64,000 nucleotides of DNA from Alphaproteobacteria bacterium (lineage in GTDB: Bacteria > Pseudomonadota > Alphaproteobacteria > MPNO01 > UBA830): the NCBI GenBank assembly GCA_965214975.1, contig OZ244055.1:3239448-3303447 (forward strand). Direction: 5' to 3'. Under the pieces are notes generated by a model, which worked only from the letters and a program-made list of their open reading frames with translations, made no database searches and had not been told where the DNA came from. The position numbers and the translations under genes are program-made. Shown here piece after piece: positions 6,929 through 38,168 of the stretch. The number at the start of each line of letters is the position of its first letter. Position 1 is the stretch's first letter.

Positions 6929-8133
6929 GCCGCGGCTATTCCGTCCGACTCGGCCGCCGCGCCTCCGGCGATCAGTTCCGCGATCTCGGCCTCGGAGTAG
7001 CCGGCCTCCCCGAGGATCTCCCGCGTGTGCTCTCCGAGCGCCGGGCCGCCCCGTCGCGCCGAGGTCGGGGTCTCGGAGAACCGGGCCGCCGGCCGGGCCT
7101 GGCGGACGCGCCCGGCCGCGGGATGAACGGTCTCGATCACGGTTCCGTTCGCCACGGTCTGGGGATGGGCCATCGCTTCCCGGCGGGTCAGCACCGGCGC
7201 GCACGGAACGTCCTCCGCTTCCAGCCGTTCGAGCCAGTCCTCCGTGCCGCGGGCGCGGAGCGCCGCCTGCGTCAGCTCGAGGCGCTCGTTGATGTTGATC
7301 TGGCGCTTCGCCGCCGTGACGAACCGTTCGTCCTCGAGCAGGTCGGGCCGCCCGAGCGCGCGAGTCAGGCCGGCCCACTCCCTGTCGCTCTGGACGGCGA
7401 CGCTGATGTAGCCGTCGGCGGTTTCGTAGATCAGGTCGATGAAGCTCGCGGCCCGGGCCTGCGGAAACGGCTCGTCGGCGAAGGTTTGGGCGTTCATGTC
7501 GGATCCCCAGAGAAAGGCGAGGATCGCGTCGAGCATCGACAGTCGCACGTGCTGGCCCCGGCCGCTGCGCTCGCGCGCGAGCAGTCCGGCCGCGATCGCC
7601 TGGGCGGCCGCGAGTCCCGTGAGCTTGTCGGGAAGGATGGTGCGCACGAGCCGGGGCCGCTCGTCGTCCGAGCCGGCCTGGACGGTGGCGAGCCCGGACA
7701 GCGCCTGGACCAGCGGGTCGTAGACCGGCTTGGCCGCGTAGGGCCCCTCGAAGCCGAACCCGCTGATCGACACGTAGAGGATGTCCGGCGCGGTCCGGCG
7801 CACCGTCTCCTCGCCGATGCCCATGCGCTCGGCGACGCCCGGCCGGAAGTTCTGGACGAAGACGTCGGCGCCGGAGACGAGCCGCATCAGCGCCTCGATC
7901 CCCTCCTCGCGCTTGAGGTCGAGCGCGATGGAACGCTTGTTGCGGTTGTTGTTGAGGAAATTCGCCGAGAACCCGTTGCGCGTGTTGGCCGAGGCTCGGG
8001 TGTGGTCGCCGCCCGCGGGGTTCTCGACCTTGACGACGTCGGCCCCCTGGTCGGCGAGAAGCATGGTCGCCGACGGCCCCGAGACCATCGAGGTCACGTC
8101 GACGACGCGGAATCCTTCGAGCGGTCCGTGCAT
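6925..8133 (-). CDS. Family III CoA-transferase (CaiB/BaiF family).
   Basis: 402 aa from MHGPLEGFRVVDVTSMVSGPSATMLLADQGADVVKVE, the typical N-terminus of this family. It sits 5 nt downstream of the last permease gene. Confidence 0.85.
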   Translation of the reverse strand: MHGPLEGFRVVDVTSMVSGPSATMLLADQGADVVKVENPAGGDHTRASANTRNGFSANFLNNNRNKRSIALDLKREEGIEALMRLVSGADVFVQNFRPGVAERMGIGEETVRRTAPDILYVSISGFGFEGPYAAKPVYDPLVQALSGLATVQAGSDDERPRLVRTILPDKLTGLAAAQAIAAGLLARERSGRGQHVRLSMLDAILAFLWGSDMNAQTFADEPFPQARAASFIDLIYETADGYISVAVQSDREWAGLTRALGRPDLLEDERFVTAAKRQININERLELTQAALRARGTEDWLERLEAEDVPCAPVLTRREAMAHPQTVANGTVIETVHPAAGRVRQARPAARFSETPTSARRGGPALGEHTREILGEAGYSEAEIAELIAGGAAAESDGIAAA

Positions 8134-25309: not shown

Positions 25310-26716
25310 CTAGAGATAGTCCTCGAGCCTGGCCTTCCCCCAGTTGAGCGGGAAGGCCTGCCGGTAGTCCTCGCCGCCGCGGTGCGGCTTGGCGGTGGCG
25401 TCGAAACCGATCTTTCCGACGAGGCGGAACGGCTCGTGGCCCGGCAGGGGCGCGGCCGAGGGGTCGTACGGGGAGCCGCGCGTTCCGGGCACGACGATGA
25501 CGTCCTGCGCCGGATCCACGCGGGTCGCGAGGGCGTGGTAGACCGCGCCCGGGTCGTCGACGTCGGTGTCGGGGCTGACGGCGACGACCATCTTGGTGTT
25601 GAGCCAGGGCGCGCCCATGGCCTGCATCAGCGCGTCGTTGACGAGACCCGGCCGCGGGTAGTCCACCTGCAGGATGCAGCTCAGCGCCGCGCCCCAGGTC
25701 GGGAAGCGCACGTCGCGGACGTCGAGGCCGATTTCGGAAACGCGGTTGTAGAGCACGGCCTCGTGGCACAGCCGCGGCAACGTCTGATGGTCGGTGTCCG
25801 GCACCGTCTGGTGGTTGCGGTAGATCGGGCGGTCCCGCCGCATCGTGACGGCCCTGACCTCGATCGGGGGGAGTTCCTGGCGCCGCGGAAGGAAATAGCC
25901 GCTTGGCGCGTTGACTCCGCCGGCGCTTTCGGTCCGGGAAAGGTCGACCACGGCCTCGACGACGATTTCGGCATGCGCGGGGACGCGGAGGTCGACGGTC
26001 TCGCAGGGGGTCATCTCGACGTCCCTGTCCATCACGGTTCCGACCATCTCGAGTTCGCCCCACAGATCCATGTGCAGCCCCGAGAAATTGGCCATGATCT
26101 CGTAGGCCGGGGGCAGGCCGAACACGAGGGCGATCGGCATTTCCGCGTGCCCGGCGTCGCGGTGCTTCCGCATGATCAGGTGGGTGTGCGGCGTGGCGAA
26201 GCTGATCACGCCGTGGCGCGGGCCGAGCGGCGTGGTGCCGGCATGGGACGAGTTGAGGAATCCGGTCTCCGGATCCTTGACGACGTTCATGGCGGAGATG
26301 TAGCGCCGGCCCTCCTCGGCGGAGTGGACCGGCACCGGAAGGTCGAGCCAGTTCGCCTCGGCCCCGGTGCGGACGATCTCCTTGACGGGGCCCGTGGGAA
26401 CGTCGACGAAGCCGCGCGGCGGCATGCGCAGGCGCTGCGCCAGCGTGGGAAGGTAGTCCTCGCGTTCGACGCCGAGCGCGCGGCACTGCGACCAGCGGTG
26501 CTTGACGAGGATGTCGCACATCCGGAAACCGGGGTGCTCCTCGATGTTCTCGAACAGGATCGGCCCTTCGGACTGGGCCGACAGGGCGCCCACGTCGTCG
26601 ATCGAGACCGGCCGCTCGACGACGGTCAGGATGTCGCGGTTGGTCTCGAGATAGCCCCGCAGGTCGCGGTCGGGAACCCGGTTGCCGCCGCGCGCGGCCG
26701 CGGGCGCGCCGGTCAC
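25310..26716 (-). CDS. UbiD-family (prenylated-FMN-dependent) aromatic acid decarboxylase.
   Basis: About 469 aa with the UbiD-type N-terminus (DLRGYLETNRDILTVVERPVSID...PILFENIEEHPG) and a conserved C-terminal region. The GTG at 26716 overlaps the stop of the upstream Rieske gene (GTGA). Confidence 0.85.
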   Translation of the reverse strand: MTGAPAAARGGNRVPDRDLRGYLETNRDILTVVERPVSIDDVGALSAQSEGPILFENIEEHPGFRMCDILVKHRWSQCRALGVEREDYLPTLAQRLRMPPRGFVDVPTGPVKEIVRTGAEANWLDLPVPVHSAEEGRRYISAMNVVKDPETGFLNSSHAGTTPLGPRHGVISFATPHTHLIMRKHRDAGHAEMPIALVFGLPPAYEIMANFSGLHMDLWGELEMVGTVMDRDVEMTPCETVDLRVPAHAEIVVEAVVDLSRTESAGGVNAPSGYFLPRRQELPPIEVRAVTMRRDRPIYRNHQTVPDTDHQTLPRLCHEAVLYNRVSEIGLDVRDVRFPTWGAALSCILQVDYPRPGLVNDALMQAMGAPWLNTKMVVAVSPDTDVDDPGAVYHALATRVDPAQDVIVVPGTRGSPYDPSAAPLPGHEPFRLVGKIGFDATAKPHRGGEDYRQAFPLNWGKARLEDYL

Positions 26717-27735
26717 GGCGCCTCTGCCCTGACCAGCCGGTCGATCCTGCGGCGGAACAGCCCCGCCGAGGCGTCGAGGTCGAGGCCGGTTCGGGTGCGG
26801 CCGGGGTGGCGTTCCTCCTCTTCCTGGATCGCCTCGAGAATGTCCTTGTCCTCGGCGAACGCGACGCGGAACTGCTCGCTGATGCCTTCGCCGACCGCGG
26901 GGTCGTCGACGCCGAAATCCCGGACGTGCATCCAGCGGTCGATCGTCCTGTTCTCCTCGACGGGCGTCATGAAATGGCAGGAGAACACCTGGATGCGCTG
27001 CTCGCCACCGTCTTCGAGACCGCCCGTGCCGGCGGCCGCGCCGCCGAAATCGATGATCGCGGTCGACGGCACGTGCATCAGGTAGCGCTGCCACATGTCG
27101 ACCCGGCCGCCGTGGTTGCCGAAGGCGCGGATGAACCCCGTCGGCGCGGAATCGACGGTCAGGCGCTCGGTCAGGACGCCCCAGGAGGTTTCCTCGTGGG
27201 TGACCGGCGCGTTGATCTCGTCGGGATTCCCGAGGGTCGACGGGTGAACGTAGTTGACGTGGGTCGGGTCGCACAGGTTGTCGCAGAGCAGCAGGTAGTT
27301 CGCCGTCACGTCGAGGGCGTCCCCGTGGACGGCCGCCCAGCCGTCCCGGCGGTACTGGGGCAGGTCGGGGATGGCCGACGGATCGGCCCTGCCGGGGTCG
27401 CCCATCCAGGTCCAGACCAGGCCCAGACGCTCGGCGGCCGGGTAGGTCCGCACCGTGCAGTCCGCCGGGACCGAGTCCTGGGTCGGCGCCCCCTTGCAGG
27501 CGCCGTCGCCGCCGAAGACCAGCCCGTGATAGCCGCATTGCAGGTCGCCGTCGCGGACGCGGCCCTTCGAGAGCGGCAGGAAACGGTGCGGGCAGAGATC
27601 CTCGAGCGCGCGGGGTTGTCCGTCGCCGTCGCGCCACAGAACGATCCGGTCGCCGAGAACGGTTGCCGCGACCGGCGCGGAATCGAGGTCGCGGGCGAAG
27701 CCCGCGACGTACCAGGCGTTCCGGACGAAGGTCAT
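26713..27735 (-). CDS. Rieske [2Fe-2S] non-heme-iron oxygenase alpha subunit, VanA/phthalate-family (includes GbcA/CntA-type demethylases).
   Basis: 340 aa with a Rieske motif CPHRFLPLSKGRV...CGYHGLVF, and the N-terminus MTFVRNAWYVAGFARDL typical of VanA-like enzymes. Confidence 0.85.
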   Translation of the reverse strand: MTFVRNAWYVAGFARDLDSAPVAATVLGDRIVLWRDGDGQPRALEDLCPHRFLPLSKGRVRDGDLQCGYHGLVFGGDGACKGAPTQDSVPADCTVRTYPAAERLGLVWTWMGDPGRADPSAIPDLPQYRRDGWAAVHGDALDVTANYLLLCDNLCDPTHVNYVHPSTLGNPDEINAPVTHEETSWGVLTERLTVDSAPTGFIRAFGNHGGRVDMWQRYLMHVPSTAIIDFGGAAAGTGGLEDGGEQRIQVFSCHFMTPVEENRTIDRWMHVRDFGVDDPAVGEGISEQFRVAFAEDKDILEAIQEEEERHPGRTRTGLDLDASAGLFRRRIDRLVRAEAP

Positions 27736-27826: not shown

Positions 27827-28660
27827 TCACGACAGCCCGAACCCGTGGCCGCGCAGGAACCCGGAAAACCCGGCCCGCTCGGGAACCGAGAGCTGGCGCG
27901 CCGCGTTCTCGGACCAGGTGCAGCGTTCCGCGACCCCGTACCTGTCGGCGTGGCGCTGGTTTTCGGGCGCGATCGGCACGGCCTCGTGGCGTTGCGCGTC
28001 GTAGGCGTCGACCGCCGCCCGAAGGCCGGTGTCGTCGTAGACCTCTCGATGCACGACGACCTCGGACGGCAGCCGGGCGTTGACGCGGCCCTCCGCCACG
28101 GGCCAGCCGAGGGTGAGTCCCGCGACGGGGAACACGCCGTCGGGCAGCTCGAGCGCCTCGGAGAACCCGTCGATGCGGTTGCGCACGTCGCTGATGGGCG
28201 CGCAACCGAGCCCGGAGGCCTCGGCCGCGGTGACGAAGCACTGCATCGCCATCGCGGCGTCGACGACCGCGTTCAGGAATCCGTCCATGCCGTCGTTCCG
28301 GAACTCGTGGCCGCGGAACCCGGCGATCCGGCGCATGCGCCGCATGTCCGCGCAGAACGTCGCGAAGACCGGGCAGTGCCGCAGGTGTCCGGTGCCCGGG
28401 CAGAGCTCGGCGAGGCGTGCGAGCCGGGCGGGCTCGGATGTCACGACGATCGAGTACTGCTGAAGGTTGGACTTGGTGGGGGCGGACTGCGCGCAGGCGA
28501 GCAGAACCTCGAGAAGTTCGGGCGCGACCGGCCGGTCGGCGTAGCGCCGGATGCAGCGGCGCGACAGCAGTCCGGACACGGTCTCCGGCACCGGATCCAG
28601 GCGGTCCGGCCCGGTGTCGTGGCCGTAGCGCCGGTTGATCAGTTCGCGGGTGGCGGTCAT
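27827..28660 (-). CDS. Nitroreductase-family flavoprotein.
   Basis: 277 aa with the nitroreductase-fold motif SAPTKSNLQQYS. It is the first gene of the nitroreductase-Rieske-UbiD-AhpD unit. Confidence 0.75.
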   Translation of the reverse strand: MTATRELINRRYGHDTGPDRLDPVPETVSGLLSRRCIRRYADRPVAPELLEVLLACAQSAPTKSNLQQYSIVVTSEPARLARLAELCPGTGHLRHCPVFATFCADMRRMRRIAGFRGHEFRNDGMDGFLNAVVDAAMAMQCFVTAAEASGLGCAPISDVRNRIDGFSEALELPDGVFPVAGLTLGWPVAEGRVNARLPSEVVVHREVYDDTGLRAAVDAYDAQRHEAVPIAPENQRHADRYGVAERCTWSENAARQLSVPERAGFSGFLRGHGFGLS

Positions 28661-29528: not shown

Positions 29529-30605
29529 TCAGGCGGCCCGGCTCTCGGTGGCGATCGCTTCGGCGACCATGCGCCGGAGCGCGAGGCCGGGGCCGTCGAC
29601 GTTGATGTCCACCCAGTTCCGCGGATTGTGGGCATGGCGCTTGATGTTGGCCTGCTGGGCGGAGAGGATGTCGACGTCTTCCTGGAAGGCGCCGCGCAAC
29701 TCGACGCGGAACATCTCGTCCACCTCGGCGTCGTCGAGCGCGAAGTTCCTCGAATGGGCGTAGAAGTACCGGCAGCTGCGGTCGGTTTCCGGAGTGATGG
29801 CGTTGAGATTGTAGAACTCGAACCCCGTGCCGTTGCGCCCGCCGGGGCGACGGCCGATCGAGTCCGGATGATCGCCCGGCGACGCGCCGCAGCCGGCGGG
29901 CAGGCAGCCGACCCACACCGTGTTGCAGCTCGGAACCTGGCCCTCGGCGTACTGCCAGCGGTCGATGTTGTCCTCGAAGCCGCCGAATCTCGCGTAGAGC
30001 GGCGCGGGCGCCGAGTCCATGATCCACCGGATCATGCGCACCGTCCGGTCGCCTCGGGTGACGACGATCGGAAAATCGGGAACCGCTTCGGTTCCGATGT
30101 TGCGGATGTGGACGTAGGCGAGATGGCTGAGGTCGAGAAGGTTGTCGTTGAACAGCTCGTAATGGCAGGGGACATGGAACGGCGGGTCGCCCTTCACCAC
30201 CCGCCAGTCGGGGTGGTCCATGACCTTCCAGTCGGGCAGCAGCGATTCGTCCGCCAGTTCGGGGGTGCCCATCCACAGCCAGACGAGCTGGTGTTTCTCG
30301 AGCGCCGGCCAGGCATGCACCGTGGCGCCCGGCGGGATCCGGGCCTGGCCCGGAACGCGGATGCAGGCGCCGGAGGCGTCGAATCTCAGGCCGTGGTATC
30401 CGCATTCGATGACGTCGCCCTCGACCCGCCCCTGCGAGAGAGGCAGGTTGCGGTGGCAGCAGCGATCCTCGAGGGCGACCGCCCGGCCGGCGCCGTCGCG
30501 GAACAGGACGACGGGTTCGCCGAGCACGGTCCGCGCGAGTGGCGTCTCGTCGACCTCGTGGTTCCAGGCGGCCGCGTACCAAGCGTTTCTCAGGAATCCG
30601 TCCAT
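29529..30605 (-). CDS. Second VanA-like Rieske [2Fe-2S] oxygenase alpha subunit (paralog of the one at 26713..27735).
   Basis: 358 aa, MDGFLRNAWYAAAWNHEV...CCHRNLPLSQGRV...CGYHGLRF. The start was moved to the ATG at 30605; the track N-terminal extension is low-complexity. Confidence 0.85.
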   Translation of the reverse strand: MDGFLRNAWYAAAWNHEVDETPLARTVLGEPVVLFRDGAGRAVALEDRCCHRNLPLSQGRVEGDVIECGYHGLRFDASGACIRVPGQARIPPGATVHAWPALEKHQLVWLWMGTPELADESLLPDWKVMDHPDWRVVKGDPPFHVPCHYELFNDNLLDLSHLAYVHIRNIGTEAVPDFPIVVTRGDRTVRMIRWIMDSAPAPLYARFGGFEDNIDRWQYAEGQVPSCNTVWVGCLPAGCGASPGDHPDSIGRRPGGRNGTGFEFYNLNAITPETDRSCRYFYAHSRNFALDDAEVDEMFRVELRGAFQEDVDILSAQQANIKRHAHNPRNWVDINVDGPGLALRRMVAEAIATESRAA

Positions 30606-30891
30606 GGAGCCGCTCCGATCTCCGTCCGGCCGCAGGGTATCCGGCCGGCCGGGGCTTCGGCAACAGGTTCCGGAGCCGTCCGCCCGGCGGCCGGAACGGA
30701 AACCGGGCGGCTGGCGACCGGGATCGGCGTCGGGGCCCGTCCCGTGAAGCGCAGCTCCGCGGCCACTCGGGCCGGAAGACGGGTTGCGGGCGGCGGGCGG
30801 CTTCACTCGCCCCGGAAAGGCGCGCCGACGCCAGGTCGAGGGACGTCCCGGCCAGGGCCGGGACGTCTCCCGGTCCGCGCCCGCGCGCGGT

Positions 30892-31647
30892 TCACTGGTT
30901 GTGTCTGCCCCCGTCGACGTTGAAGGTCTGTCCGGTCACGAAATCGCTGTCCTCGCTCGCCAGGAACAGCAGCATCCCGATCAGGTCCTCCGGCACCATG
31001 TCCCGCTTGATGGCGCGGGCCTGCAGTGTCGGTGCGCGGGCGACATGAAGATCGGGGTGGTTCCGGACGCCTTCGCTCTCGGTCAGGCCGGGCGCGATGC
31101 AGTTCACCATGATGTTCTTGTCGCCGAACTCGCGCGAAGCGGAGCGCGTGAAAGCGATGACCGCGCCCTTCGAGCAGACGTAGTGAGCCAGGCCGGGTCC
31201 GCCATAGTAGAAGGTGCCGGAGCTGATGTTCACGATCTTGCCTCGTCCGTTCTTGAGCATGCTGGGGACGACGGCCTTGGTGGCCTGCAGCGTCCCGCGC
31301 ACGTTGACCGTCATCACCCGGTCCCAGTCCTCGTTCGAGATCTGCATGATCGGGGTGAACCTCAGCTCGGCGAAGAGCGCCGCGTTGTTGACCAGGATCT
31401 CGATCGGCCCGAACGCCGCTTCGGCGGCTCCGACGAGGTCGGAGAGCGACCCGTCATCGGTCACGTCGGCGATTCTTCCTATCGCCTCGCCGCCGGCGTT
31501 GCCGATCTCGTCGACCACGCGGGACGGATCGGCGACATCGGAAACCACGACCCGGGCGCCCTCGTCCGCAAGGGCCTTCGCGTAGGTCTCCCCGATGCCC
31601 TGGGCGGCACCGGTCACGACCGCGACCTTTCCATCAAGCCTGCTCAT
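30892..31647 (-). CDS. Short-chain dehydrogenase/reductase (SDR).
   Basis: 251 aa with TGAAQGIG, NNAA and the YxxxK catalytic motif (YVCSKGA). Confidence 0.9.
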   Translation of the reverse strand: MSRLDGKVAVVTGAAQGIGETYAKALADEGARVVVSDVADPSRVVDEIGNAGGEAIGRIADVTDDGSLSDLVGAAEAAFGPIEILVNNAALFAELRFTPIMQISNEDWDRVMTVNVRGTLQATKAVVPSMLKNGRGKIVNISSGTFYYGGPGLAHYVCSKGAVIAFTRSASREFGDKNIMVNCIAPGLTESEGVRNHPDLHVARAPTLQARAIKRDMVPEDLIGMLLFLASEDSDFVTGQTFNVDGGRHNQ

Positions 31648-31726: not shown

Positions 31727-33085
31727 TCATGATCCCAACATCGTGTTGGGCAGGAACATCGCGATCTGCGGAAACGCGACCAGCAGGGCGATCATCGCCG
31801 CCATCGCGAACCAGAACGGCCAGATTCCCCTGAATATCGTGCGCATCGGCACCTCCGGCGCGATCGACTTCACGACGAAGACGTTGATGCCGACCGGCGG
31901 CGAGATCATGCCCATTTCCAGGACGATCACGACGATGATCCCGAACCAGATCAGATCCCACTGGAGCTGGGTCGCCAGCGCCATCACGACCGGGATGGTG
32001 AGGACGAGCATCGCGATGCCCTCCAGGAAGGTTCCGAGAAACATGTAGATCAGGATGACGACGACCAGCACGCCGACCTCGCCGATCGGGAGCGAGGTCA
32101 GGAAGGTCACCATGTCGCCGGCAAGCCCGGTCAGGGACATGAAGGGAATGAAGACGAACGCGCCGACGATGATCAGAAAGACGGTCGCCGTCGCCTTCAT
32201 GGTTTGCAGGACCACGGCGCGCAGCCGCCGGACGTCGAGCGAACGCCGCCAGAGCGCGACCAGGAACGTGAGAAGCGCGCCCACCGCGGACGCCTCGACG
32301 GGCGTGAAGAAGCCGGTGTACATCCCGCCGATCGTGATTCCGACCACCAGCACGATCGGGACCGCGGCGACGACCGAGCTGCGGCGCTCGCCGGGCGTCG
32401 CGGGGTTGCCGGCCGGCCCCTTCTCGGGGCGCAACCGGACGGTGATCCACACCGCGCCGATGAACAGCAGCGTGAGCACGATGCCCGGCACGATGCCGGC
32501 CATGAACAGCCGGCCGACCGACTGGTCGGTCAGCACCGCGTAGATGATCATCCCTCCCGACGGCGGGATCAGGAAGCCCAGCGTGCCGCCGGCCGCCACC
32601 GCGCCGGTCGAAAGCTCCGGCGCGTACCTGAACCGGTTCATCTCGGGCAGCGCGACGCGGCCCATCGTGACCGCGGAGGCCAGCGAGGATCCCGACAGCG
32701 CCGCGAACCCGGCGCAGGCCGAAATCGTCGCCGAGGCGAGGCCGCCGCGGAAGTGGCCGATCCAGCGGTGCGCCGCGGTGAAAAGGTCGCGCGACATGCC
32801 CGAGACGCCCGCGAGATTGCCCATCAGAACGAACATCGGGATGACCAGCAGGTTGAAGTTCGAGGCGACCTCGAACGCCTCGCCCGACAGGTTGGACATA
32901 GCCGTGTTCCAGCCCCGCGCCCAGGCCTGGTCGCCGGCCATGCCCAGGCCGATGAACCGGTTCGCCTGAGCGCAGAGCGTGCCGAACGTGCCGACGAGAA
33001 TCATCGCGAGCGCGACCGGGAACCGGAGCGCCAGGAGTCCGAACAGAACGAGCAGCCCGATCACTCCGATGAGCGACATGCTCAT
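31727..33085 (-). CDS. dctM: TRAP transporter large permease DctM.
   Basis: 452 aa polytopic permease (MSMSLIGVIGLLVLFG...). The start is coupled to the dctQ stop. The track fuses it to an upstream frame. Confidence 0.9.
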   Translation of the reverse strand: MSMSLIGVIGLLVLFGLLALRFPVALAMILVGTFGTLCAQANRFIGLGMAGDQAWARGWNTAMSNLSGEAFEVASNFNLLVIPMFVLMGNLAGVSGMSRDLFTAAHRWIGHFRGGLASATISACAGFAALSGSSLASAVTMGRVALPEMNRFRYAPELSTGAVAAGGTLGFLIPPSGGMIIYAVLTDQSVGRLFMAGIVPGIVLTLLFIGAVWITVRLRPEKGPAGNPATPGERRSSVVAAVPIVLVVGITIGGMYTGFFTPVEASAVGALLTFLVALWRRSLDVRRLRAVVLQTMKATATVFLIIVGAFVFIPFMSLTGLAGDMVTFLTSLPIGEVGVLVVVILIYMFLGTFLEGIAMLVLTIPVVMALATQLQWDLIWFGIIVVIVLEMGMISPPVGINVFVVKSIAPEVPMRTIFRGIWPFWFAMAAMIALLVAFPQIAMFLPNTMLGS

Positions 33086-33624
33086 CGCGCATTCCCGTCC
33101 GCCTCGGGCATCGGCGCGAGATCCCGATCGGCGAGCAACAGGACCAGATCGGCGATCAGGATCGCGACGTACAGCACGATCATCGCGCCCATGGCGTAGT
33201 AGAACGGCTCGTACGAGATCAGGAGCTGCTGCGTTGCCTCGCCGAATTCCCGGGCCGATGCGCCCGCCTTGAACAGCCGCCAGGCCAGGGCCGCGACCAG
33301 GGGGACGGCGAGCAGTTTCATCGCGGCCAGGGACCAGCGCGCGAAGGCCTTCGACATCCAGGTTTCGAAGATCTCGATCTCGATATGCGCGCCGACGCGG
33401 CCGCCATAGGGAATGGCGACCGCGACCAGGATGACGAGATTGAGCACCAGGATGTCCTCGGCGCCGACGATCGGGTCGTTGAGAACCTTGCGCATCACGA
33501 TGACGTTCCAGCTCGTCAGCAGGACCATGACCGCAAGTCCGATCCCGCCGACGAGGAACGTCAGCCGCTCTATCAGTCGATCGATCCGGCGCAGCCAGCC
33601 CGGCCGGGTGTCGCCGGCGCCCAC
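33082..33624 (-). CDS. dctQ: TRAP transporter small permease DctQ.
   Basis: About 180 aa (…LRRIDRLIERLTFLVGGIGLAVMVLLTSWNVIVMRKVLN…). It lies between dctP and dctM. The GTG start near 33624 is approximate. Confidence 0.65.
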   Translation of the reverse strand: MGAGDTRPGWLRRIDRLIERLTFLVGGIGLAVMVLLTSWNVIVMRKVLNDPIVGAEDILVLNLVILVAVAIPYGGRVGAHIEIEIFETWMSKAFARWSLAAMKLLAVPLVAALAWRLFKAGASAREFGEATQQLLISYEPFYYAMGAMIVLYVAILIADLVLLLADRDLAPMPEADGNAR

Positions 33625-33638
33625 GACGTCTGTGCTCT

Positions 33639-34670
33639 CTACCTGTTGATCGTCTCGTAGATCTCGCGCGCGTTCCCGATGCCGCGCTTTTCGTAGTCCG
33701 CGAACAGGATCTCGAGCCCGCGCTGGACCGCGGCATCCATCTTGGCCCGTTCCCCGGCGGACACCTGGATCCATTTGACCCGCGCCATCTTGGGCGATGT
33801 CCGCATGAGCTTCTCCGCGCCTCGGTCGGCGCCGTCGAAGGTCTTCGCGCCCCTGCGCGACATCGTCACGCCCGAGAGGTCGTCGATGATCTTGCGGTGT
33901 TCGCGCGACAGCCCCTGGTAGCGTTCCTTGTTCATCGCGACGAACGTGACCGCGAACTGGACCGGGACGTTGCCGACCACGAACTTGGCGACGTCCCAGA
34001 AGTTCCAGGGCTGGGTGATGTTGCTGAACGCGGAGTACGCTCCATCGATCGTGCCGGTCGAAAGGCCGGTGTACATCCGCGTCACCGGCATCTGCACCGG
34101 CACCGCTCCCATCGCCTTCACGATCGGGGTCGTCATCGCCGCGTAGGGAACGAGCTTCGCTCCGCGCAGGCCGTCCATGGTCGAGACGTTCCGGGTCGCG
34201 GCGATCAGGGCGCCGGCGACCGTGAACACGGCCATCGCCTTGACGGCCTTGTACTCCTGCGCGAGATGGCGGTCGTAGACTCTCCACAGCCGCTCGGTCG
34301 ACTCCGGGGCCGTCCTCGCCTTGCCCGGCGGGATGATCAGCATCGAGCGCGGGAACAGCGTGGCGGTGTAGGCCTGGATCCCGAAGGTGATGTCGGCCAC
34401 GCCCTCGACCACCCGCTTCCACTGCTGGACGGGCCCGGCGCCGAGCTGGCCGGCGGGGAAGAGCTTCATGGTCAGGCTGCCGTTGGAGCGCTTGGCGATC
34501 TCCTCGCCGAACCATCCGAACAGGTACTTGTTGATGTGGTGCTGCGGCGGCATGAACGTGGCGACGGACAGTTCCTCGGCCGCCGACGGAGAACTTGCCA
34601 GAAGCGGCGCGATGACGAGGAACGCCCTGGCGATCCGGCGGCGAGTAGCGCTGTTCGAAAACTGAGCCAT
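33639..34670 (-). CDS. dctP: TRAP transporter substrate-binding protein DctP (copy 1).
   Basis: 343 aa with a signal peptide (MAQFSNSATRRRIARAFLVIAPLLASSPSAAEE), DctP family. The ATG is at 34670. Confidence 0.9.
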   Translation of the reverse strand: MAQFSNSATRRRIARAFLVIAPLLASSPSAAEELSVATFMPPQHHINKYLFGWFGEEIAKRSNGSLTMKLFPAGQLGAGPVQQWKRVVEGVADITFGIQAYTATLFPRSMLIIPPGKARTAPESTERLWRVYDRHLAQEYKAVKAMAVFTVAGALIAATRNVSTMDGLRGAKLVPYAAMTTPIVKAMGAVPVQMPVTRMYTGLSTGTIDGAYSAFSNITQPWNFWDVAKFVVGNVPVQFAVTFVAMNKERYQGLSREHRKIIDDLSGVTMSRRGAKTFDGADRGAEKLMRTSPKMARVKWIQVSAGERAKMDAAVQRGLEILFADYEKRGIGNAREIYETINR

Positions 34671-34794
34671 GAATCTTCTCCCGATTTGCGGCCTGGAGTC
34701 GTTGCGTCCGCGATGGGCGACGGCGAGAACCGCTGTTTCGATCGCGGTTCGAAAGGCATCGTAGCGGAAACGGGAACAATGAAAATGACGAAAT

Positions 34795-34940
34795 GCCAAT
34801 ACGACATATAGATCCCGACTATACCCCGTGAGGCCGGGAACGTCCTGGCGTCGGGCGGCGGCCATCGGCATTCGCCGGTCGGAGTGGCGTGCCGGCGTGT
34901 CAGGTCGCGTGCCGGTTGCGCCGCTTCGGAAAAAGTCGGC
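34795..34940 (-). pseudogene. Remnant of the LysR regulator 3' end (last ~48 codons) carried along with the duplication.
   Basis: It translates to ...FSEAAQPARDLTRRHATPTGECRWPPPDARTFPASRGIVGIYMSY, versus the intact LysR C-terminus FSEAAQKVFNLIRQHIDKSLRSGEYRWLPPESKAFSASQHIGNAYMLY. The stop has been lost. Confidence 0.45.
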
Positions 34941-35039
34941 AGGCGTTTCGGATCGCGAGCACGACCCCTCGGGGCCGCGGGCGGTTCCGTCGCGACCGGG
35001 GTCACGATGCCGGGGACCGGGACGTCTTCCGCGTCGACG

Positions 35040-35200
35040 AGCGGGTTGCGGGAACCTTGGGAATCCCGATGACGTTCAGGCTCGTCGGCGGGACCATGAC
35101 CGCAAGTCATGTCCCGCCGACGAGGAACGTCAGCCGCTCCGTCGGCCGGTCGATCGGGCGCGGCCGGCCCGGCCGGGTGTCGCCGGCGGCGTCGGCGTTC
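35040..35200 (-). pseudogene. Remnant of the dctQ 5' end upstream of dctP copy 2.
   Basis: 35041-35160 matches 33481-33600 (dctQ N-terminal coding) with many substitutions. No intact ORF. Confidence 0.4.
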
Positions 35201-35201
35201 C

Positions 35202-36233
35202 CTACCTGTTGATCGTCTCGTAGATCTCGCGCGCGTTCCCGATGCCGCGCTTTTCGTAGTCCGCGAACAGGATCTCGAGCCCGCGCTGGACCGCGGCATC
35301 CATCCTGGCCCGCTCCCCGGCGGACACCTGGACCCATTTGACCCGCGCCATCTTGGGCGAGGTCCGCATGAGCTCCTCCGAGCGTCGATCGGCGCCGTCG
35401 AAGGCTTCGGCGCCCTTGCGCGACATGGTCACGCCCGAGAGGTCGTCGATGATCTTGCGGTGTTCGCGCGACAGCCCCTGGTAGCGTTCCCTGTTCATCG
35501 CGACGAACGTGACCGCGAACTGGACCGGGACGTTGCCGACCACGAACTTGGCGACGTCCCAGAAGTTCCATGGCTGGGTGATGTTGTTGAACGAGGAGTA
35601 GGCTGCATCGATGGTGCCGGTCGAAAGGCCGGTGTACATCTGCGTCACCGGCATCTGCACCGGCACCGCTCCCATCGCCTTCACGATCGGGGTCGTCATC
35701 GTCGCGTAGGGAACGAGCTTCGCTCCGCGCAGGCCGTCCAGGGTCGAGACGTTCCGGGTCGAGGCGATCAGGCTGCCAGCGACCGTGAACACGCCCATCG
35801 TCTTGACGGCCTTGTATTCCTGCGCGAGATGGCGGTCGTAGACTCTCCACAGCCGCTCGGTCGACTCCCGGGCCGTCCTCGCCTTGCCCGGCGGGATGAT
35901 CAGCATCGAGCGCGGGAACAGCGTGGCGGTGTAGGCCTGGATCCCGAAGGTGATGTCGGCCACGCCCTCGACCACCCGCTTCCACTGCTGGACGGGCCCG
36001 GCGCCGAGCTGGCCGGCGGGGAAGAGCTTCATGGTCAGGCTGCCGTTGGAGCGCTTGGCGATTTCCTCGCCGAACCATCCGAACAGGTTCTTGTTGATGT
36101 GGTGCTGCGGCGGCATGAACGTGGCGACGGACAGGTCCTCGGCTGCCGACGGGGAACTTGCCAGAAGCGGCGCGATGACCAGGAACGCCCTGGCGATCCG
36201 GCGGCGACTTGAGTTGTTCGACAGCTGAACCAT
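35202..36233 (-). CDS. dctP: TRAP transporter substrate-binding protein DctP (copy 2).
   Basis: 343 aa, MVQLSNNSSRRRIARAFLVIAPLLASSPSAAED..., roughly 95% identical to copy 1. The ATG is at 36233. Confidence 0.9.
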   Translation of the reverse strand: MVQLSNNSSRRRIARAFLVIAPLLASSPSAAEDLSVATFMPPQHHINKNLFGWFGEEIAKRSNGSLTMKLFPAGQLGAGPVQQWKRVVEGVADITFGIQAYTATLFPRSMLIIPPGKARTARESTERLWRVYDRHLAQEYKAVKTMGVFTVAGSLIASTRNVSTLDGLRGAKLVPYATMTTPIVKAMGAVPVQMPVTQMYTGLSTGTIDAAYSSFNNITQPWNFWDVAKFVVGNVPVQFAVTFVAMNRERYQGLSREHRKIIDDLSGVTMSRKGAEAFDGADRRSEELMRTSPKMARVKWVQVSAGERARMDAAVQRGLEILFADYEKRGIGNAREIYETINR

Positions 36234-36357
36234 GAATTCCTCCCGTTCTGCAGCGTGGAGTCGCTGCGTTTGCGATGACGGCGGCGACAAGCGCCGGTCC
36301 GAACGCGGTCCGAGAGGCATCGTCGACGGAAACGCGAACGATGAAAATGACGAAATT

Positions 36358-37320
36358 CTAATACAACATATAGGCATTGCCTATATGCTGGGAGGCCGAG
36401 AACGCCTTCGATTCGGGTGGCAGCCACCGGTACTCGCCCGATCTGAGCGACTTGTCGATGTGCTGCCGTATCAGGTTGAAGACTTTCTGCGCCGCTTCGG
36501 AAAAGGCCGGCACGGGTTTCGAGTTCAGGTAGAGCCGGCACCAGATGCTGGGCTTCTCGATGTCATGGCACCGCAGCTCGCCCTTCAGGATCTGGTTGTG
36601 CAGGAACAGGTACGGGCCGATGAAGCCCCGTTGTCCGTTGGCGACCAGTTCCTGGCGGAGCAGCATCGAGTGAATCTGAAGCGGCCTGGTCAGGGGAACG
36701 TCCAGCTCTTTCGCGGCGCGGGGCGCGATGCCGCATTTGTCGAAAACGAGCGGCAGGTTCGCGGCGACCTCGAAGGGAACGCTGTCCGGAAGATTCCCGA
36801 TGAGTTCCTGGCTTCCGATCAGGCACATCCGGTCAAGATAGAGGGGGAAGGATTCGAACCGTTCGTCCTCCATCGGCGCGAACGACAGGGCGCAGTCGAT
36901 CTCGTCGGCGACCAGGGCAAGCGACAGGTTCTCGGTGAACTCGACGAAAATCGAGATCTCGAGATCCGGGACGAGCGCTTCCGCGGCTTCCAGCACGGTC
37001 GACATCACGGCGATGCCGATCGACGGAATGACGCCGATTCTCAGAACCTGCCTCGGCGCGGTTCGCAGATGGTCGACCGATTGCCGGGCGATCTCGAGGC
37101 GCCGCAGCACGTCCCGAACGTGCGAGAGATAGATGGAGCCCGCTTCCGTCAGTTCCACGCCTCGCGAATGACGACGGAAAAGCCGGAGGCCGAACTCGTC
37201 CTCGAGCTTCTTGATCTGCACCCCCAGAGTCGGCTGGGAGACGTTCAAGGCCTCCGCCGCGGCGGTGAAGCTGCCGTGTTCGGCCACCTTGCGGAAATAG
37301 CGAAGCTGTCTCAATTCCAT
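36358..37320 (-). CDS. LysR-family transcriptional regulator.
   Basis: 320 aa from MELRQLRYFRKVAEHGSFTAAAEALNVSQPTLGVQIKKLE (helix-turn-helix) followed by a LysR substrate-binding domain. The start was moved to the ATG at 37320; the track starts 26 codons upstream. Confidence 0.85.
   Translation of the reverse strand: MELRQLRYFRKVAEHGSFTAAAEALNVSQPTLGVQIKKLEDEFGLRLFRRHSRGVELTEAGSIYLSHVRDVLRRLEIARQSVDHLRTAPRQVLRIGVIPSIGIAVMSTVLEAAEALVPDLEISIFVEFTENLSLALVADEIDCALSFAPMEDERFESFPLYLDRMCLIGSQELIGNLPDSVPFEVAANLPLVFDKCGIAPRAAKELDVPLTRPLQIHSMLLRQELVANGQRGFIGPYLFLHNQILKGELRCHDIEKPSIWCRLYLNSKPVPAFSEAAQKVFNLIRQHIDKSLRSGEYRWLPPESKAFSASQHIGNAYMLY
36367..36387. promoter_or_regulatory. Perfect 21-bp palindrome CATATAGGCA-T-TGCCTATATG overlapping the last codons of the LysR gene, upstream of dctP copy 2.
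   Basis: Two 10-bp arms that are exact reverse complements. The corresponding sequence in repeat copy A is degraded (catatagatcccgactatac). Confidence 0.3.
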
Positions 37321-37889: not shown

Positions 37890-38168
37890 CTACAGCCTGA
37901 AATCCACGCCGCCCGAGGATTCCGTGGTCGTCATGCGTTTCTTGAGATCCTCGATCTCGCCGCTCAACGCCTTGACGATCTTCGCGACATCCGCGTCGTT
38001 GTAGTCGTAGGCTTTCCGGTTGCCGAGCTTGGCAAGGCTCCGTATCGCCTTGATGGACTTGATGGTCCTCCTTTCGGCCAGCCTCACGAAATTGTCGCGT
38101 TTCGAGGCGGGCCCGGCCCTTCCGGCCTCGGCGGCGGGAGTGCCAAAGGCTGTTTCCGACATTTTCAC
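37890..38168 (-). CDS. Hypothetical small basic protein (about 90 aa) of lower GC than its surroundings.
   Basis: Starts GTG AAA ATG (GTG at 38168, or ATG at 38162). It is Lys/Arg-rich (…FVRLAERRTIKSIKAIRSLAKLGNRKAY…IEDLKKRM), uses AT-rich codons, and has an AT-rich upstream region at 38169-38340. Confidence 0.5.
   Translation of the reverse strand: MKMSETAFGTPAAEAGRAGPASKRDNFVRLAERRTIKSIKAIRSLAKLGNRKAYDYNDADVAKIVKALSGEIEDLKKRMTTTESSGGVDFRL

Follow-up and report, generated by a model that had tools for sequence, protein, structure and literature searches.

Two receptor genes in a TRAP transporter operon: a tandem duplication with probable later recombination between the copies

How does a transporter of the tripartite ATP-independent periplasmic (TRAP) type come to possess two closely similar solute-binding proteins, and does the second of them change what is imported? 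The question is raised by a 64,000-nt stretch of an alphaproteobacterial genome (contig OZ244055.1 of assembly GCA_965214975.1; hereafter the window, in whose coordinates all features are given). There, the genes lysR, dctP2, a dctQ fragment (dctQ'), a lysR fragment ('lysR), dctP1, dctQ and dctM follow one another in this order, all of them on the minus strand. We find that a tandem duplication, which probably dates back at least to the separation of the nearest sampled lineage, provided the second receptor gene, and that parts of the two copies were probably made alike again by gene conversion. The most likely consequence is a larger dose of receptor, and at most a fine adjustment of its binding.

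Genes were assigned from the list of open reading frames (ORFs), from Pfam profiles and from the gene calls on an identical contig, L037, whose one deviating tract is described below. Both receptor genes, dctP1 (33639-34670, minus; Pfam DctP, 9e-27) and dctP2 (35202-36233, minus; Pfam DctP, 1e-25), are intact ORFs encoding TRAP solute-binding proteins of 343 residues. The two proteins score 94.5 and 91 bits against a curated PF03480 cut-off of 23.4, and the product of dctP2 is identical to the protein P0001. Their membership of the DctP family is further indicated by the two membrane subunits encoded directly downstream of dctP1, in an order that recurs in 21 related loci. The small subunit gene dctQ (33082-33624, minus; Pfam DctQ, 5e-16) has a GTG start which aligns with the start in L038, a contig of a sister lineage considered below, and a gene call on L037 maps to the same place. 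The large subunit gene dctM (31727-33085, minus; Pfam DctM, 2e-92), likewise called on L037, encodes 452 residues. Directly upstream of dctP2 stands an intact LysR-type regulator gene, lysR (36358-37320, minus; Pfam HTH_1, 3e-26, and LysR_substrate, 9e-19), whose orthologues in the 21 syntenic loci are 76-83% identical.

A repeat search returned families of direct repeats spaced by 1561-1571 nt, the longest of which covers 300 nt at 93% identity with a spacing of 1563 nt. Gapped local alignment of 33421-34950 with 34991-36521 gave identity at 1379 of 1544 columns (89.3%), with 27 gap columns. A first-pass annotation, made from the letters of the sequence, had proposed a diverged tandem duplication of a dctQ 5'-dctP-lysR 3' unit with an offset of 1563 bp and two receptors of 343 residues each, and had suggested a pairwise alignment as a check; the repeat search and the alignment, which sets the copies head to tail, bear this out. 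The copies that it placed at 33480-34940 and 35040-36504 are in the right position, although their extents were drawn too short. The motif GTTTCG is present at 33362 in dctQ, at 34945 and at 36516 in lysR, and an 8-bp microhomology, GGTTTCGA, is found at both parental sites (dctQ, 33361-33368; lysR, 36515-36522). From these positions and the alignment, unit A spans 33368-34950 and consists of the 'lysR remnant, the copied intergenic region, dctP1 and the real 5' end of dctQ. Unit B spans 34951-36521 and holds the real 3' end of lysR (its last 54 codons), the intergenic region, dctP2 and the dctQ' remnant; its first 40 nt (34951-34990), which fall beyond the gapped alignment, are a heavily decayed extension of the dctQ fragment. 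The duplication junction itself occupies 34945-34950 (GTTTCG), with lysR to the left of it and dctQ to the right.

A junction placed on microhomology usually marks either slippage between sister chromosomes or illegitimate recombination mediated by the microhomology. Its anatomy here points to a duplication in place and not to an insertion of foreign DNA: illegitimate recombination or replication slippage at the GGTTTCGA sites of dctQ and lysR would have produced, in some ancestor of the lineage, a head-to-tail copy of about 1.57 kb. The features by which a tandem duplication is recognised are all found at this locus, namely a head-to-tail repeat, truncated flanking genes which meet at the junction, microhomology, and a single copy in relatives.

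Both gene fragments at the junction are dead. The 'lysR remnant (34795-34950, minus) comprises the last ~54 codons of lysR (tblastn, 44% to LysR residues 266-320); it has lost its stop codon by a change from TAG to TGG and differs from the real copy at 32% of its nucleotides. The dctQ' remnant (34951-35201, minus) comprises the first ~89 codons of dctQ (tblastn, 71% to DctQ residues 6-50), with the GTG start removed by a deletion, an in-frame stop after ~25 codons and 28 remnant-specific substitutions, and its junction-proximal part aligns weakly to 33368-33420. The decay of these two remnants, including the missing stop and start, had been noticed from the start and is upheld. Thus, after the duplication, both fragments at the junction would have decayed while both dctP copies stayed intact. 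The short spacer between dctP and dctQ (33625-33641 in unit A, 35189-35204 in unit B) presents a case of its own, in that the copy in the dead context of unit B matches L038 (TAGGGAACGCCGACGC) and the functional copy of unit A carries five private changes (TAGAGAGCACAGACGT); the spacer ahead of the live dctQ was therefore altered after the duplication.

The ancestral state was sought among relatives, as had also been suggested at the outset. Scanning one genome per species gave 36 loci, of which 15 preserve the order lysR, dctP, dctQ, dctM and dehydrogenase, and a scan of metagenomes gave a further 14 loci, six of them syntenic. A single dctP is present in 15 of the 15 syntenic genome loci and in all six from metagenomes. 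The duplication is therefore specific to the lineage of the window. No further two-copy locus was found among the 14 metagenome loci, none of which is closer than 86%. The relatives are metagenome-assembled genomes labelled Rhodospirillaceae, Defluviicoccus or Alphaproteobacteria, the best being 86% identical in DctP, and the names of several suggest a sponge origin; the lineage of the window is presumably sponge-associated too. The sequence of the window itself is matched by L037, a separately assembled short-read contig (ENA ERZ21849000, NODE_14467; 3710 nt at 5.8x coverage), which agrees without mismatch at 35092-34307 and at 33741-31518, the junction and both dead fragments included.

Some relatives show peculiarities of their own. 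Two long-read metagenome-assembled genomes among them have an interrupted single dctP, with an in-frame stop at codon 212 in one (L007, 6001-7029) and a frameshift near codon 213 in the other (L034, 6001-6907), each of which may reflect a pseudogene or a sequencing error. The more distant orthologous loci of Rhodobacterales and Rhodobiaceae (L021-L026 and L030) have a gap of ~0.9 kb, at about 7000-7950, between dctP and dctQ; it presumably holds an extra gene, which is not present in the clade of the window.

Signals upstream of the two receptor genes appear to have been duplicated along with them. A perfect dyad of the T-N11-A (LysR-box) type, ATATAGG-N5-CCTATAT (36368-36386), is situated upstream of dctP2 within the final codons of lysR; it is conserved nucleotide for nucleotide in 15 of 15 aligned orthologous loci (L001-L012, L031, L033 and L038) and forces AT-rich rare codons (ATA, TAT, TTG, TAT) upon a genome of 70% GC. 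A second copy upstream of dctP1 (34806-34824) has kept the core TATAG-N7-CTATA, with one mismatch to the pattern searched. Within the 64 kb this pattern occurs exactly twice, once upstream of each dctP, where none would be expected by chance. The conserved 44-nt block of copy A shows 8 mismatches in 44 positions to the orthologue consensus, compared with 45 in 135 over the rest of the 'lysR remnant (p = 0.06). The GGGAG ribosome-binding motif is kept at both dctP genes, a GGGAGG Shine-Dalgarno sequence preceding the ATG of dctP2, and a scan of the region found no terminator-like site between the copies. The twin dyads, the two ribosome-binding motifs and the lack of a terminator-like site suggest that both genes would be expressed under the same regulator, with dctP1QM driven by its own copy of the promoter and possibly also by read-through. 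Each dctP would thus have retained its ribosome-binding site, its signal-peptide region and an upstream copy of the LysR-box dyad, and one DctQM unit would probably be served by two periplasmic receptors. The one sigma-70 site returned by a promoter scan, TAGGCA-17-TAGAAT upstream of dctP2, was set aside, as its -10 hexamer is not conserved in orthologues.

The age of the duplication is a less straightforward matter, since the two units have diverged very unevenly. Divergence between them is 0.32 in the 3' part of lysR, 0.18 in the intergenic region and 0.19 in the 5' part of dctQ, yet only 0.044 in dctP. The two dctP genes are 95.6% identical in coding sequence (45 of 1032 nt differ) and their proteins 92% identical; 27 residues differ, and not about 15 as first given. 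A protein cluster built at 90% identity contained two members beyond the pair of the window, among them P0122, which is encoded on L038, a Logan contig (run DRR466689) from a different organism. The layout of L038 is single-copy, with lysR (at least 226 codons), the intergenic region, dctP and dctQ (at least 77 codons), and its receptor is of the DctP1 type: about 11 of the differences between DctP1 and DctP2 are common to this sister lineage and hence old. In the part of lysR that the repeat does not reach (517 nt), no other relative is as close to the window as L038 (0.089, compared with 0.126-0.188 for the others). This rules out L038 as a distant donor, an idea considered on account of a LysR which is only 81% identical at the protein level.

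A neutral scale for the dead fragments is offered by lysR, in which the number of synonymous substitutions per synonymous site (dS) between the window and L038 is 0.189, or about 0.1 per lineage since the split. Private substitutions amount to 13-15% in the dead fragments, which have indels besides. Because this exceeds the ~10% of neutral divergence accumulated per lineage, the duplication should not be younger than the L038 split; it would have arisen at about the time when the sister lineage, which carries a DctP1-type protein, separated, or earlier. The first-pass annotation had called the duplication old, and flanks 19-32% diverged beside a coding divergence of 4.4% agree with it. Within the receptor gene, dS is 0.07 between DctP1 and DctP2, much lower than the 0.18 between DctP1 and L038.

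Every variable site of dctP was polarised against 14 single-copy orthologues. Of the two copies dctP2 has more of the ancestral states, with ~10 residues derived relative to the orthologues, and dctP1 is the derived type, with ~15 derived residues, of which ~11 are common to P0122; neither copy looks degenerate. Private changes number 43 in L038, 6 in DctP1 and 14 in DctP2. At 16 sites (15 in a stricter recount), situated mostly in nt 440-921, DctP1 and L038 share the derived state while DctP2 is ancestral. At 14 others, mostly in nt 58-292 and 961-1018, it is DctP1 and DctP2 that share the derived state while L038 is ancestral, and these stretches fall together with zones of identity between the copies (nt 172-364 and 930-1032). 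Such clustering is modestly significant (binomial p = 0.012; runs test p = 0.029). As no single tree fits the two sets, recombination must have taken place, most likely as gene conversion between the copies, the direction of which we infer. An import of dctP2 from outside the lineage was considered and rejected, as none of the sampled orthologues agrees consistently with its private changes, and DctP1 is at least as close to each outgroup.

The contig L037 bears on this question as well. At the position of dctP1 (window 33742-34306) it has the DctP2 state at 32 of 32 differing sites of nt 365-929 and nowhere else, the tract being bounded by the two identical stretches. Either the population contains this variant as a convertant, or similar repeats were collapsed or joined into a chimera during the short-read assembly of a contig of 5.8x coverage.

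Taken together, we regard it as probable that the duplication arose no later than the L038 split and that conversion then homogenised the 5' third of dctP and its 3' end (the last 100 nt), leaving a central block of 565 nt, nt 365-929, in which two types persist. The early view of two near-identical receptors descending from an old duplication thus stands as regards age, but the near-identity is in part secondary, recombination having homogenised nt 172-364 and 930-1032. Several observations weigh against our interpretation. Firstly, L038 shows a single-copy layout, and an old duplication therefore demands that dctP2 was later lost there or that the short-read contig has collapsed. Secondly, dS in the central block is lower between DctP1 and DctP2 (0.083) than between DctP1 and L038 (0.140), which requires patchy conversion in that block too, or a faster evolution of L038. 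Thirdly, the L037 variant may be the collapse of a short-read bubble and not a real convertant. Furthermore, at p = 0.06 the dyad block of copy A shows no more than a tendency to be retained, and the use of both promoters and the docking of both receptors to DctQM are presumed.

The persistence of two types directs attention to what the receptors bind. An AlphaFold2 model of DctP1 (pLDDT, the predicted local distance difference test score, of 83.5) has the two-lobed fold of TRAP binding proteins, and Foldseek gave template-modelling (TM) scores of 0.77-0.82 to TarP, to a binding protein from a marine metagenome and to SiaP. Substitutions were mapped by sequence equivalence, through hhalign alignment to the verified sequence of SiaP and by offset to the published contacts of IseP. 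With V196 equivalent to F170 and S213 to N187 of SiaP, the DctP1-type changes Q198R, A210G, S214A and N216S fall within three residues of these equivalents and thereby flank two ligand-binding segments. Position 216, where the conservation of Asn in the family reaches at least 90%, corresponds by offset to Ser220 of IseP, described as lining the binding site (PMC11668362).

These positions argue for a functional alternative, in which the DctP1 type is a new-function receptor of shifted ligand specificity, kept distinct by selection despite conversion, so that two related substrates are imported. The branch leading to DctP1 and L038 adds to it, with 12 non-synonymous to 3 synonymous changes compared with 33 to 30 on the other branches, as do a ratio of non-synonymous to synonymous rates (dN/dS) of 0.53 between the copies, compared with 0.13-0.25 between orthologues, and the persistence of DctP1-type residues in two lineages. 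However, the non-synonymous excess is marginal (p = 0.07-0.08), and most replacements are conservative (A/S/T/G, K/R, I/V) and within the natural variation of the family, derived states such as G210, A147 and S216 being seen in more distant orthologues also. Six of the differences are located on helix 268-291 of the model, which we assume to be exposed at the surface, and in the alignment to SiaP none of the 27 falls on the direct equivalent of a known ligand-contact residue. We consider a new function unlikely on this balance. A shift in ligand specificity is no more than possible, given that most changes are conservative, and a greater dosage of receptor accounts for the data just as well as a change in specificity. 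The most likely consequence is accordingly that higher dosage: more receptor protein, with at most a fine tuning of binding by the DctP1 type, a new class of ligand being improbable.

A second alternative concerns the order of events, and holds that the duplication is younger than the L038 split and that homologous recombination with L038-like DNA later replaced nt 365-929, the middle of dctP1, the single-copy gene of the donor already having the 11 DctP1-type residues. It would account for a single-copy L038 with a DctP1-type gene, and it finds support in distances between DctP1 and L038 of ~5.3% inside the block and ~10% outside, while DctP2 and L038 differ inside it by ~8.8%, the ordinary distance between the two lineages. 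The synonymous sites are near a tie, three uniting DctP1 with L038 and four uniting DctP1 with DctP2, and the in-block dS values given above likewise fit a young duplication. We nonetheless judge it unlikely. The private changes of the dead flanks, substitutions and indels alike, exceed what one lineage should have accumulated since the split, no donor has been identified, and the pattern in L037 indicates that exchange between the two copies is feasible, or at the least easily produced.

That the second copy is an artefact of assembly, whether by stitching two strain variants in tandem or by erroneous expansion of a repeat, is very improbable. In favour of this reading, the window comes from a metagenome-derived genome, and L037, which was assembled from short reads of the same population, is a chimera of the two copies. 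Against it, truncated genes meet at the junction, on a microhomology of 8 bp. The junction fragments have diverged by 19-32%, with indels and the loss of a start and of a stop, beside 4.4% in the coding sequence, which strain variants would not be expected to do. Both proteins are recorded on one source contig of 3.8 Mb (3,807,671 bp), and the separate assembly of L037 has the identical junction and both remnants.

The receptors themselves belong to an unusual group, whichever history is preferred. The conserved Arg which binds the ligand carboxylate (R147 of SiaP) is not present in DctP1 or DctP2, hhalign placing a gap at this position. In the structures 5im2, 5iga, 5i5p, 7nr2 and 7nsw the Arg is aligned with V174, a residue that does not vary among 40 members of the family. 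This Arg is found in 96.8% of 6,142 TRAP binding-protein sequences and is typical of them without being strictly defining (PMC5812351). The loop bearing SiaP R127 is deleted, and the equivalent of SiaP N187 is Ser. With the Arg replaced by an invariant Val and the equivalents of R127 and N187 missing, canonical carboxylate binding would seem doubtful. The family has an invariant P-P-Q-H-H-x-N motif at residues 41-47, in the first strand-helix loop.

The best matches in both sequence and fold are TarP with coumarate, ferulate or caffeate (7nr2, 7nra, 7nsw, 7ntd, 7nrr, 7nqg), the aromatic-acid binding protein of a marine metagenome (5i5p, 5i7i, 5iga, 5izz) and Rfer_2570 (5im2). The matches to these aromatic-acid receptors have E-values of 4e-37 to 2e-29 with the family profile, TM scores of ~0.8 and identities of 22-26%. 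The resemblance extends to their setting. On the minus strand downstream of the transporter, the window has genes for a short-chain dehydrogenase (30892-31647; assigned by Pfam), a VanA-like Rieske oxygenase (29529-30806), a nitroreductase-family protein (27827-28660) and a second VanA-like Rieske oxygenase (26713-27735), both oxygenases with Rieske and VanA_C domains in Pfam. This neighbourhood suggests a pathway of demethylation or oxidation for the imported compound, and the likeness to aromatic-acid receptors fits the presence of the VanA-like enzymes. It has a limit, as TarP binds aromatic carboxylates through its conserved Arg: here, in contrast to TarP, the other aromatic-acid receptors and SiaP, the Arg of the G-x-K-x-R-G motif is V174, although the fold is similar. 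A bolder conjecture joins the two themes, namely that the receptors are distinct, that selection shields nt 365-929, the block with Q198R, A210G, S214A and N216S among others, from repeated conversion by dctP2, that DctQM imports two related substrates, and that the Arg-less family with V174 and the PPQHH motif may bind a class of ligand new to TRAP transporters; we think it quite unlikely. On the other side of the locus, just upstream of lysR, an ORF of 92 residues (37890-38168, minus) has a weak match to HepT-like ribonucleases which, at 20.5 bits (E = 4e-4), stays below the cut-off of 23.5.

What the locus offers is a readable case of a binding-protein-dependent transporter gaining a second receptor, with the microhomology of the junction, both dead fragments, the duplicated dyad and, in relatives, the single-copy ancestral state still visible. 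Judged by a coding identity of 95.6%, the duplication would have seemed several-fold too young, because recombination has made parts of the gene alike, and this is a caution for the dating of paralogues by coding identity. The 27 differences, especially those at 198, 210, 214 and 216, constitute a small natural set of mutants for the tuning of ligand binding, in a DctP family that is among the roughly 3% of TRAP receptors without the canonical Arg. We regard this as a real but ordinary duplication followed by recombination between the copies, which leaves current understanding unchanged and may serve as a useful example.

A literature search for TRAP operons with two dctP genes returned nothing usable, and comparison must turn to other systems. 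The closest functional analogue is argT-hisJ, reportedly described by Higgins and Ames in 1981, which encodes the LAO- (lysine-arginine-ornithine-) and histidine-binding proteins of the HisQMP2 permease in Salmonella and E. coli. These are adjacent, tandemly duplicated receptor genes with promoters of their own and one shared translocator, and their ~70% identical products have specificities which are experimentally distinct. The present pair likewise consists of adjacent receptor paralogues from a tandem duplication which presumably share one membrane unit. The differences are that HisQMP2 is an ATP-binding cassette (ABC) and not a TRAP system, and that the identity is ~70% there and 92% here, where it is partly due to homogenisation by recombination. 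A further comparison is with tufA and tufB, which exemplify the concerted evolution of bacterial paralogues by gene conversion, of which partial forms are common. There too, the coding sequences of paralogues are more alike than their age predicts and converted tracts end at stretches of identity. In the present genes, however, conversion has been partial, and the central block of 565 nt keeps its two types. Surplus or orphan binding proteins are familiar among tripartite transporters, and are well known in the related tripartite tricarboxylate transporter (TTT) family, for example as the Bug/TctC proteins of Bordetella (PMC5812351). The likeness lies in an excess of receptor genes over membrane units, which implies a shared translocator. 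The Bug/TctC genes are, however, dispersed, numerous and highly diverged, whereas the locus described here is a single, recent tandem pair inside its operon, with the scars of its origin still visible.

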